Assembly: GCA_902383995.1 (NCBI GenBank)
Contig: CABLZX010000007.1
Coordinates: 39,702 to 103,701 of the forward strand
DNA length: 64,000 nt
From: an uncultured Brachyspira sp.
Lineage (GTDB): Bacteria; Cyanobacteriota; Vampirovibrionia; Gastranaerophilales; Gastranaerophilaceae
Direction: 5' to 3'
A program made the position numbers. Numbering within the stretch: the first letter of the stretch is position 1; the number at the start of each line of letters is the position of its first letter. Below, piece by piece: positions 1 through 3,000 of this stretch.

Positions 1-3000
1 TTATATTCTGGGGGCTGTGGAACGGCTTTTTTATAATTTTGGAAAAAATGACAGGCTGGCATAAAGAAACAGATAAACCTTTTATAAATTTCCTAAAACA
101 TATATATACAATCTTTATTTTTGTAATTGGCTGGGTAATGTTCAGAGCTGATAATATGCACTATGCAGCTATTTATCTTAAAAATATGTTCGGGCTGGTA
201 AAAGTTCACGACGTTGCCTACGCTATAAACTACTATGGCGACACTGTTGAAGTTTTGACATTTATAATCGCAGTCATCTGTGCCATGCCGGTATTTTCAA
301 AAATCCTTGAGATTAAACAGGAACGTAAAATTCTAAGAAGTATTGTAAATATCTGGCTTATAATCCTGTTTATACTCTCCACAGCTGCAATTGCTGCATC
401 AACATATAATCCTTTCATTTATTTCAGATTTTAAAAGGTTGAAATATTTTAAAAATACGATATAATAAAAATACAGGGAAACGGACTAAAAGTCCTTACC
501 TTCTAGCCCGTTCTTCGTTCCCTATAAATAGATGATAATTATTTTTAAAAGCGTGTCTAGCACTACTAGCGCGCTTTTAATTATCTTTCTATTCATATTA
601 CCACCTCCTTCCGGCTTTGTTTCTTCGTAACTTGCGTGTGCCGGAGAGGCTAAAGGAACTTACCCTCAAAATAATTATACCGGAAATATTATTAATAATT
701 AAATATCATTGCTCAAAAGCAGCCCTTCGCTGCTTACACCCGCTTTCGCGTGCCGTTCATAGCTGCGCTGTCTAATACGCCGCTCAAAAATTCAGCCCTC
801 ATTCCTTGTTGCAAAAATTTTCAGACAGTCTTTGAAAATTTTTATGCTAAAATTATTATAGAGGGTTAGTATGAATTTTGAAGAAAAGACATTAAGCTCT
901 GAATGTGTTTATAACGGCAGGATAATTACAGTATGTAACGATGAGGTAGAACTCTCGACAGGCAGAAAATCTTTCCGCGAAGTTGTTCATCACTCCGGCG
1001 GGGTCGTAATCCTGGCTTTCAAAGACGAAAATACTGTTCTTTTTGTAAAACAGTTCAGATACCCGCTAAAACAGACACTTCTTGAACTTCCGGCCGGTAA
1101 ACTTGAAAAGGGTGAAGCTCCTGACCTTGCGGCAAAACGTGAATTGGAAGAAGAAACCGGTTACAGGGCTGAAAACTGGCAGCCGCTTGGTTATATTTTT
1201 ACCTCTGCCGGCTACAGCACAGAAAAATTATACCTTTATAAGGCTTCAAAGCTTGAATTTGTAGGAGAACATCCTGATGAAGGAGAAATTCTCAAAATAA
1301 TCGAATTTAATATCAATGATGTTTATAAAATGATTGAAACAGGCGAAATAAATGATGCCAAAACGCTCTGCGCAATCCTGAGAGGTCTTAAATTATGATA
1401 AAAATGGTCGCAACCGATATTGACGGTACAATAGTTAAATGGGATACAGAAATCAGCGATAACGTGAAAAACTGTATCAGCAATCTTTGTGAAAGCGGTG
1501 TAAAAGTTGTTCTTGTAACCGGCAGAATGCACTGTGCAACAACTCATATTGCAGCTTCCCTCGGGCTTGACACTCCTATTGTGTCATATCAGGGGGGGCT
1601 GATAAAAAACAAATCAGGACAAACTCTTTACCAGCAGAATTTAAACTGTGATTATGCAGATAAAATAATTAAATGGGCTAAAGAAAATGATATTCACATA
1701 AACCTGTATATAGATGATAAGCTTTATGTAGAAAAAGATAATGATTTTGTAAGAAAATATACCGATGGCAAATTTGTTTCTTACACAGTCTGCCCCTTCT
1801 CAACACTTAAAATAGATAATGTAAATAAAATTCTGGCAATAGATTACAACGATGCAGACAGGGTAACCGGCTGGGTTGAAGAGCTTCATAAGTCATTTCC
1901 TGAACTTTACGTAGTTAAATCAACACCTTACTTCTGCGAAATAGGCAGTCCGCTTGCCAGAAAGTCCACAGGTGTAGAGTTTTTGGCTAAACAGTGGGGA
2001 ATAAAAAAAGAAGAAATCCTTACTATCGGAGACCAGGATAATGATATAGAACTTTTAAAAGCCGGCGGAACCGCCGTTGCCATGGGTAACGCAACAGAAG
2101 AACTTAAAAAATACGCGGATTACATTACAGATAGTGTGGAAAATGACGGTTTTGCGCATGCTATGGAAAAATTTGTATTCTCTGAAGTTGAACGGCTATC
2201 TTAAAAATTCTCCACCCAAGTAAGTAAATATAAGACCTCAACGAAATGAACAGCCGTTGTTCAGCACAACAATGACAAAGCATGTGCTGTCTGAGCGCAG
2301 CGAGTTCACTTGCATGTGGTTGAGCTGATTACAGACGGCTAGTGAATGCAGTTACAGGCATTTTATTTACTTACTCGGGTGGAGAAAACTTTCCAGCACT
2401 GAATTACAGCATTATTCGTATTTATTTTGTAAACAAATATTAAGTATATGTAAAAAATATATATGCTTTACGCAATTTTTAAATACTAATTTACTTTATA
2501 TAAATACAAGAGAAAATTAATTTATAGGAAAAAGAATAACAGAGTATAACGATGTAAACATTTGTAACGAAACCAGACAAATTCGGCTTAATCATTAAAG
2601 ATTAAACATAAATGTGACGATTAAGAGAATGTGAGTAAATAATTTAATGGAGAAAGAAAAAATGGCAATCGACAAATTTAACGGAAATTTAGGAAACGTA
2701 AACAATTTTCTGTTCGGTAAAAAAGTAGAAAAAGATGAAACCAAAAAAGCAGCACCAAAGGAAAATGTTCCTGTAGGTCAAACTCAGGCAGCATCAGAAA
2801 CTGCTAAAGTTGACAAAACCAACTTAAATCTTGATGCAAATGCAATCTGGGGCTTACATCTTACAGCTCAGGCTAAAAAAGTAGATACTTCTGACAAAGC
2901 AGTAGAAGCAAGAGCATCACAATTCTTTAAAACCGAACCTGACATCTATGCCTTAAAACAGGAAGCAGGTATTCCTGCAGAAATTGAAGGAATTGATGAT

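Follow-up and report, generated by a model that had tools for sequence, protein, structure and literature searches.

Two cassettes with predicted convergent transcripts in a Gastranaerophilales contig

The stretch of DNA studied here (64,000 nucleotides (nt) of contig CABLZX010000007.1, hereafter the window) was deposited as part of an uncultured Brachyspira sp. and is classified among the Gastranaerophilaceae. We analyzed a candidate type I toxin-antitoxin (TA) cassette that is present in it in two copies, modules A and B, in which a predicted toxin messenger RNA (mRNA) on the minus strand and a predicted antisense small RNA (sRNA) on the plus strand converge on a very short, hydrophobic open reading frame (ORF) preceded by a strong Shine-Dalgarno (SD) sequence. 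The positions of all parts are collected in Table 1.

The gene preceding module A ends with a stop codon at position 434, and the antisense promoter follows 4 nt further on; the identity of this gene as an MBOAT gene is taken from the annotation of its orthologue. When both strands of 1-1200 and 28300-29400 were read and the ORFs listed, every element that an initial annotation had assigned to module A was found at its coordinates, and the stem proposed there to sequester the SD, between CCTCTCCGGC and GCCGGAAGGAGG, is present in the minimum free energy (MFE) fold. The second copy, which had been placed at 28697-28958, is real and extends over 28697-28990. The antisense RNA could be placed as predicted, although its dimensions had to be revised: it would be ~110 nt long rather than ~105 nt, and it would cover ~85% of the small ORF rather than two-thirds of it.

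The 64 kb window contains a 32-nt promoter block at exactly two places (0 expected), one in each module. Consensus scans picked the plus-strand promoters of A and B independently (11/12 matches) and also found a terminator-like hairpin on the minus strand past each ORF. No conserved plus-strand ORF appeared in the ORF listing of either module.

The toxin promoter of module A has a poor -35 element, and the predicted mRNA runs from a 5′ end in GAGGGTA at 667 to the U-rich tail past its 3′ hairpin, with an MFE of -69.6 kcal/mol (z -6.6). The sRNA of the same module begins with a 5′ domain that AGGG...CCCT closes (475-523). A single-stranded linker, whose complement is the 3′ end of the ORF with its stop codon, leads from there to a terminator hairpin; the fold of this sRNA has a z-score of -5.35 with mononucleotide shuffles as control. 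In module B, a first terminator-like hairpin of the sRNA ends near 28829, and an sRNA running to the second hairpin (28853) covers the entire ORF. A covariance-model match to this sRNA spans 28737-28853 with 134 bits.

A family of modules with a conserved antisense promoter

Further members were sought along two routes: exact-pattern scans of genome and metagenome collections with the conserved promoter, and contigs encoding orthologues of the flanking proteins. The family comprises six diverged modules (A-F), plus the orthologues A2, B2, and C2, in Gastranaerophilales-type contigs. The collection scans, made with one exact promoter pattern, missed E and F (spacer AAAAATAGT), so the distribution and copy number of the family are under-sampled. 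A scaffold named "Brachyspira sp. CAG:484" carries a near-identical copy of module B; the nearest relatives of the DnaN and NUDIX proteins encoded in the window come from metagenome-assembled genomes of Candidatus Gastranaerophilales, and the host is accordingly assigned to the Melainabacteria/Vampirovibrionia of the human gut. Module D is preceded by the C-terminal part of alaS, whose nearest named relative belongs to the Gastranaerophilales (73% identity).

Neither nhmmer, nor a signature scan (SD, short hydrophobic ORF, and convergent promoter), nor the covariance model revealed further copies in the window or in ~395 kb of related contigs. The scan of viral contigs returned only chance promoter matches, and BLAST against plasmids and phages gave no similarity to the modules. 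One of the metagenome contigs with a module B copy (L012, ~620-650) contains the Nextera adapter AGATGTGTATAAGAGACAG within that copy, a chimeric assembly in the public database.

Two groups of peptides can be distinguished, A/C/(D) and B/E/F, with A homologous to C and C2, and B homologous to E and F. The transcribed sequences are barely alignable between the groups, and an sRNA covariance model of either group fails to detect the other. In the seven aligned modules, the -35 and -10 hexamers of the antisense promoter and their 16-nt spacing are all the same, and the AGGG start lies 7-8 nt past the -10 box in 7/7 sequences. The -10 boxes of the mRNA promoters are weaker and variable (TATAAT, TATTTT, TATATT, GATAAT, and TATGAT), and these promoters are much further from consensus than that of the antisense RNA.

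The outer, toxin-promoter edge of both window modules carries an AT-rich motif, GAAATATTATTAAT, which matches twice in the window (683-700 and 28968-28985) where 0.03 matches are expected. A similar motif lies beside modules D (L014) and E (L024). Its spacing from the toxin -10 box is not constant (about 0, 45, and 60 nt), and its conceivable roles are those of an UP element, a regulator site, or a boundary of the cassette.

Table 1 Features of modules A and B in the window and further members of the family (SD, Shine-Dalgarno; aa, amino acids)
Feature	Position or contig	Strand	Remarks
Module A	~436-700	both	intergenic cassette, ~250 bp
A, antisense-RNA promoter	439-466	+	TTGAAA (439-444), 16 nt, TATAAT (461-466)
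A, predicted antisense sRNA	475 to ~585	+	~110 nt; ends predicted
A, sRNA terminator hairpin	547-578	+	T-rich tail after it
A, toxin promoter -10 box TATAAT	679-674	-	7 nt before predicted mRNA 5′ end
A, predicted toxin mRNA	667-467	-	~201 nt; ends predicted
A, 5′ leader motif GAGGGTAAGTTCCTTTAGCC	667-648	-	5′ partner of the 5′-3′ long-distance interaction
A, anti-SD CCTCTCCGGC	649-640	-	partner in MFE fold GCCGGAAGGAGG, i.e. GCCGGA..GGAGG
A, SD GGAGG	608-604	-	7 nt ahead of ATG
A, small ORF MNRKIIKSALVVLDTLLKIIIIYL	596-522	-	ATG at 596; 24 aa plus stop
A, toxin-mRNA 3′ terminator hairpin	513-479	-	also picked by consensus scan
A, AT-rich motif GAAATATTATTAATAATT	683-700		outer (toxin-promoter) edge
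Module B	~28697-28990	both	same layout as module A
B, antisense-RNA promoter	28702-28729	+	TTGAAA, 16 nt, TATAAT; 18 nt past metG stop
B, predicted antisense sRNA	28737-28853	+	117 nt, up to second hairpin plus T8
B, toxin promoter	28958-28953, 28935-28930	-	TTGACA, 17 nt, TATTTT; consensus scan
B, predicted toxin mRNA	28923-28730	-	~194 nt
B, SD GGAGG	28860-28856	-	
B, small ORF MIFAVSEKALFLLLLIIIVLYII	28846-28775	-	23 aa plus stop
B, toxin-mRNA 3′ terminator hairpin	28762-28741	-	covaries with E and F
Module C / C2	L005, L015, L001		peptide MSRIIKDTLMLLGYLLQIISIFI (S2N in C2)
Module D	L014		peptide MIDKIIMLLVALTLLVVAFKL
Module E	L024		peptide MNFSVTEKALVIILLIILALKIH
Module F	L063-L066		peptide MVINQIELAIIFLMMLALKNK
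A2	L026		orthologue of module A
B2	L004, L018, L012		orthologue of module B

Predicted folds of the two transcripts

Folds were made on the predicted mRNAs (194-206 nt), with z-scores taken against mononucleotide shuffles. The toxin mRNAs of all modules share the same five-helix MFE architecture (z -4.3 to -6.6). Helix H1 joins the 5′ GGG to the 3′-terminal CCC (665-663 with 478-476 in module A), and helix H2 joins leader nucleotides 9-13 to the bases at and directly past the stop codon; in module A, GTTCCT (659-654) pairs with GGGAAC, whose first G is the stop-codon G. Helix H3 pairs an upstream anti-SD with the SD, H4 is a hairpin within the ORF, and H5 is a long 3′ hairpin followed by a U-rich tail that reaches into the antisense promoter. 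RNAalifold, applied to an unguided MAFFT alignment, recovered H1, H3, and H5. The SD has an unpaired probability of no more than 0.14 in six of the seven sequences (0.14 in module A); module B is the exception, and the value for shuffled leaders is ~0.3.

The predicted sRNAs (110-121 nt) are composed of a 5′ domain (AGGG...CCC(T)), a single-stranded linker, and a terminator hairpin that is the complement of H4, and across the family the linker is complementary to the end of the ORF and its stop codon. This composition places the sRNA almost wholly inside the 3′ half of the mRNA, where its complement includes the 3′ strands of H1 and H2. Duplexes between the sRNA and the leader outside the overlap were also computed, and cognate duplexes were no better than non-cognate or shuffled ones (z -1.3 to +1.8). 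We therefore dismissed a second sRNA-leader pairing site of the Fst/RNAII style as a general property of the modules. Module A alone repeats the 20-nt leader motif (667-648), at 17/20 positions, in its 3′ hairpin (503-484, minus strand), so that the sRNA of this module could also pair with the 5′ end of the leader.

Covariation and strand-specific selection

The sRNAs of B, B2, E, and F were aligned for the analysis of covariation. In the consensus structure of 27 pairs, 96.3% of the cells are paired, versus 34-50% with the partners slid, and eight pairs are altered on both sides, versus 0-2 when slid; none of 500 shuffles reached the observed values. For the 5′-3′ interaction, examined over three segments of eight mRNAs, the covariation score was 0.319, versus 0.148 or less with slid partners. 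The five core pairs of H2 are present in all eight sequences with the exchanges CG/UA, CG/UA/UG/AU, and CG/UG/UA, which are readable in the sequences themselves (GTTCC/GGAAC, GCTCC/GGGGC, GTATC/GGTAC, ATGCCC/GGGCAT, and AAGCCC/GGGCTT).

H3 can be followed between A and A2. The ORF, the 3′ untranslated region (UTR), and the sRNA are 100% identical between A and A2, as are the promoter and the first 14 leader nucleotides. The mid-leader differs at about half of its positions, and the anti-SD stem is compensated there, CCGGC/GCCGG of A being replaced by CTGTC/GACAG in A2.

The two hairpins differ in the strand on which they are stable. H4 is more stable in the sRNA sense in four of the five modules, A among them (for example -14.8 versus -9.1 kcal/mol in C), and the G·U pairs of the sRNA sense would be A·C mismatches in the mRNA sense. 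For H5, the energies in the mRNA and sRNA senses are -22.8 versus -13.0 kcal/mol in module A, -15.9 versus -12.7 in B, -19.4 versus -11.9 in C, and -22.5 versus -15.6 in D. Such an asymmetry would be expected if two convergent transcripts each used their own terminator, and, as read from the sequences, it indicates that H4 has been selected on the sRNA strand and H5 on the mRNA strand.

These results bear on the idea that the plus-strand RNA works in trans, or as an sRNA derived from the 3′ UTR of the upstream gene, the minus-strand transcript being irrelevant. The plus-strand promoter is indeed the best-conserved element, and the structure of the sRNA covaries. We nevertheless consider this idea highly improbable: the SD, ORF, anti-SD, 5′-3′ interaction, and terminator of the minus strand are conserved as well and in part selected on that strand, the sRNAs of the two subfamilies are too different for cross-detection by a model, which makes a shared target unlikely, and the predicted pairing with the non-overlapping leader does not exceed that of shuffled controls.

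The small ORF and its peptide

The frame linked to the SD is open for 21-24 codons in 7/7 sequences, with its stop at the 3′ strand of H2, and an SD of GGAGG or GGGGG lies 7-9 nt ahead of the start codon in all modules. The six peptides have grand average of hydropathy (GRAVY) values of 1.3-2.6, at least the 95.6th percentile of hydropathy when compared with ATG-to-stop ORFs of 20-26 codons in the window; module A reaches 1.34 (95.6th percentile) and module B 2.60. Because the SD, the start codon, the frame length, and the anti-SD have all been retained, we argue that the small ORF is translated under some condition.

The ORFs of B and E are separated by four synonymous and ten replacement differences, and the latter are mostly conservative (F/V, L/I, I/L, V/A, A/S, and S/T). 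Some of these replacements are compensatory halves of RNA pairs.

A leader ORF that runs onto the toxin ORF with an ATGA stop/start overlap was found only in B (28917-28843) and in D, where it begins with an ATG at transcript nucleotide 1. A mok-like leader ORF was rejected as a feature of the family, being absent from C, E, and F and having no start codon in A and A2.

Genomic setting of the modules

The sites of several modules are empty in close relatives. At the B site, metG and dnaN of a relative with 89% DnaN identity are separated only by an 89-bp spacer that holds a plain terminator working in both directions; past dnaN, plain terminators occur in two further relatives, and module F in a fourth. 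The site of A is a gap of 22-23 bp in relatives with 77-87% NUDIX identity, A2 being found at this site only in the relative with 95% NUDIX identity, and one relative has a plain terminator after alaS at the site of D. The modules are, by these empty sites, variable insertions or replacements. Variable presence is common for TA loci, and we counted it for the type I reading.

In five of the six loci, the antisense promoter lies either 0-18 nt past a co-directional gene or just within its end; the genes concerned are MBOAT, metG, alaS, and two unnamed ones. The antisense promoter of module F faces a divergent gene. With its promoter abutting the end of the co-directional gene, the cassette would also supply the terminator of its upstream neighbor. 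The initial annotation had itself raised the possibility that the conserved blocks are just terminators of upstream genes. It holds insofar as the modules replace plain terminators, but a promoter, an SD, and an ORF are added by the modules and missing from the plain terminators of the empty sites.

A stronger form of that possibility would make each module a non-coding intergenic repeat that supplies termination in both directions and an outward or antisense promoter, comparable in this to the promoter- or terminator-bearing intergenic repeats known from other bacteria, its ORF being a by-product of AT-rich sequence and hairpin symmetry. The position of the modules where relatives have plain intrinsic terminators would fit, as would the sRNA terminator, which at five of the six loci would also end the co-directional gene, and the compensatory hairpin changes that alter the peptide (A to S and S to T in B versus E). 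On this explanation, however, an anti-SD that covaries with the SD-proximal stem would have no purpose, and the SD at 7-9 nt and the frame of 21-24 codons would not be expected to persist in 7/7 sequences while the leaders diverged by ~50%. The peptides moreover remain hydrophobic across replacement changes, and comparison with the empty sites showed neither terminal inverted repeats nor target-site duplications at the junctions of A and B. For these reasons we find a non-coding repeat improbable.

The same setting allows a more speculative proposal, namely that the cassettes are self-contained units which move horizontally, take the place of a host gene's intrinsic terminator, and thereby wire their antitoxin supply to that gene. 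The documented neighbors are metG/dnaN, alaS, aroC, and the MBOAT gene, and since the sRNA promoter abuts the stop of the host gene at five of the six loci, read-through would add antitoxin-sense RNA and the host gene would come to end at the sRNA terminator. We regard this as possible, though rather doubtful. If true, it would describe a type I TA with a role in termination, in which silencing of the toxin is coupled to the transcription of housekeeping genes, and would do so in a phylum-level lineage without described type I systems.

Between module A and the NUDIX gene, a relatively GC-rich stretch of ~170 bp (700-870) belongs to the same insertion. L027, L028, and L030 lack this stretch, and in L026 it is ~85-90% conserved; it contains a hairpin (717-737) and a promoter-like TTGAAA-16-TATTAT (832-859) facing NUDIX. 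Folds of this stretch were not significant (z -2.2 and -1.1).

A type I toxin-antitoxin-like interpretation

The conserved family, the covariation, and the strand asymmetry support the type I TA-like reading proposed in the initial annotation, and in our judgment each cassette is probably a type I TA-like pair of convergent transcripts that belongs to a new family. Three traits of the class can be read in the sequence: a hydrophobic ORF of small size (under ~60 residues) with an SD, a gene for an antisense RNA, and a predicted occlusion of the SD.

We propose that a modest minus-strand promoter would give rise to an mRNA of ~200 nt, with a strong SD and a hydrophobic, membrane-type peptide of 21-24 residues. 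This mRNA would fold into a closed form in which the SD is masked, through the 5′-3′ pairing together with the upstream anti-SD, and from such a predicted fold the primary transcript should be poorly translatable. The near-consensus plus-strand promoter would produce an sRNA of ~110-117 nt, extending from the base of the 3′ hairpin of the mRNA to the terminator embedded in the ORF. Its complementarity to the ORF, over most or all of its length, and to the entire 3′ UTR is perfect. Pairing of the two RNAs would create a duplex of >100 bp, in which translation would be blocked or aborted and which may be cleaved by a double-strand-specific RNase; genes with a Ribonuclease_3 domain were found in related contigs. 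If the supply of sRNA dropped, the membrane peptide would be translated and would harm the cell. Read-through from the upstream gene may contribute antitoxin-sense RNA. We infer, then, transcription of both RNAs, a toxic peptide, and a duplex that leads to degradation or to a translational block.

Several points weigh against this interpretation. All transcript ends, on both strands, are predictions. The statistics of the family rest on six independent sequences, a small sample, and the three mRNA segments used for the 5′-3′ interaction were assembled by hand from predicted pairs, which favors pairing. The SD of module B is less occluded than that of the others, with an unpaired probability of 0.36. 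Short hydrophobic ORFs arise easily in an AT-rich genome, and the embedded hairpin constrains the ORF; since some replacements in the peptide double as compensation in the RNA, the constraint on the peptide and that on the RNA are not fully separable. Searches against Rfam gave no match, either for the whole window at the gathering thresholds or for both modules at E-values up to 10, where only noise was returned, and a search of five peptides against Pfam and NCBIfam found no toxin family.

The peptide might also be a small membrane protein without toxicity, such as a transporter modulator or a stress peptide, whose level is tuned by the antisense RNA. The anatomy of an SD, a hydrophobic ORF, and an antisense RNA fits this as well, and NCBIfam showed sub-threshold similarity of the peptides to models of small membrane proteins (E 0.06-0.08). 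We consider it unlikely, however, because the modules are multicopy, patchy, lineage-specific insertions at unrelated loci, because the primary transcript is predicted to be elaborately locked, and because the antisense promoter is much closer to consensus than that of the mRNA. Such traits are typical of addiction modules and uncommon among small proteins with housekeeping roles, whose loci are as a rule syntenic.

Comparison with known type I systems

Occlusion of the SD by an anti-SD or by a 5′-3′ interaction has been described as a hallmark of type I toxin mRNAs (PMC6733600), and an antisense RNA that overlaps the 3′ end and the ORF is found in the Gram-positive systems TxpA/RatA, BsrE/G/H, YonT, and SprG/SprF (PMC8594479). 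The initial annotation had likened the modules to hok/sok and Ibs/Sib; the type I logic of this comparison stands, but the gene organization is nearer to that of TxpA/RatA and BsrG/SR4.

TxpA/RatA, BsrG/SR4, BsrE/SR5, YonT/SR6, and SprG/SprF share with the modules a convergent 3′ overlap that reaches into the ORF, and this type of family resembles them further in its small hydrophobic toxin and in the extended duplex to be expected. Toxins of the TxpA/RatA type have roughly 30-60 amino acids (aa), whereas the module peptides are much shorter (21-24 aa) and have no similarity to them in sequence, profile, or Rfam. The modules also differ in that the sRNA lies almost entirely within the mRNA and that the mRNA is closed by a 5′-3′ interaction. 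The hosts are different as well, Bacillota for the TxpA/RatA type and Cyanobacteriota/Vampirovibrionia for the modules.

With hok/Sok and AapA/IsoA, the modules have in common a predicted 5′-3′ lock of the mRNA, an occluded SD, and multicopy chromosomal loci. Their long-distance helix does not include the SD, however, which is masked by a local upstream anti-SD, and their antisense RNA covers the 3′ part of the mRNA instead of the 5′ leader or the translation-initiation region; IsoA, for its part, is antisense to the 5′ part of the ORF. In hok/Sok, the peptide is of the Hok_Gef family, a mok leader ORF is coupled to hok, and Sok RNA opposes the translation-initiation region of mok; in AapA/IsoA, the SD is sequestered by the 5′-3′ interaction itself, and the mRNA is activated through 3′ trimming. 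Unlike hok/Sok, the modules have neither a Pfam match (Hok being among the families) nor a conserved mok-like leader ORF, although the leader ORFs of B and D, with their ATGA overlap, are reminiscent of mok.

The Ibs peptides, of 18-19 aa, are like those of the modules very short and extremely hydrophobic, and both systems have an antisense RNA that covers the ORF (the whole ORF in module B) and several copies per genome. The module sRNA, in contrast to Sib, extends through the 3′ UTR and does not lie over the SD in A, C, and D; there is no Pfam match, and the phylum is another. SIB_RNA (RF00113) scored 14.7 bits against a gathering score of 56 (E 2.5), with its match on the wrong part of the locus. 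In Fst/RNAII (par), direct repeats common to the 5′ regions of the two RNAs allow them to pair beyond the terminator overlap. The modules do not match this system either, as there is no Pfam match and the repeat of the leader motif (17/20) is limited to module A.

Type I systems were earlier known only from Proteobacteria, Firmicutes, and Tenericutes, and MsoT1/MsoA1 of Microcystis aeruginosa was described in 2025 as the first cyanobacterial type I TA candidate, its toxin MsoT1 having 63 aa and two predicted membrane helices (PMC12390103). MsoT1/MsoA1 resembles the modules in belonging to the same broad phylum and in having a cis antisense RNA predicted against the 3′ end of the coding region and the 3′ UTR, but MsoT1 is unrelated to the 21-24-aa module peptides in sequence and in length. 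Our literature search found no type I TA linked to Melainabacteria.

A candidate family in uncultured, non-photosynthetic gut Melainabacteria would widen the phylogenetic range of type I systems. Its design would be a mixed one, with a 3′ overlap of the Gram-positive type and a 5′-3′ lock of the mRNA like that of hok and AapA, and this combination of the two designs suggests that both solutions evolve repeatedly. The module peptides are under the length limits of gene callers and invisible to annotation. By means of the conserved promoter and the RNA models, such modules can be sought in metagenomes. The modules may also serve as compact, orthogonal RNA-controlled switches, and their peptides are candidate membrane-active toxins from a lineage not yet cultivable.

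Other observations in the window and related contigs

In two Gastranaerophilales-type contigs, alaS is present as two to three separate ORFs (L014 960-3546; L071 2689-5266), the alanyl-tRNA synthetase ORFs of L071 encoding 318 aa, 74 aa, and 421 aa. This may be a truly split gene or the result of recurrent frameshifts. Positions 1-2830 of L063, ~8 kb upstream of dnaN, carry Mu-like prophage genes (a Mu transposase C-terminal domain, an AAA/TniB-like gene, and a terminase), which are missing from L064-L066, three contigs with a DnaN identical to that of L063. In the window itself, positions 15510-21680 hold an ORF of 2056 aa with a GC content of 0.40, compared with ~0.35, and an AT skew of 0.30.

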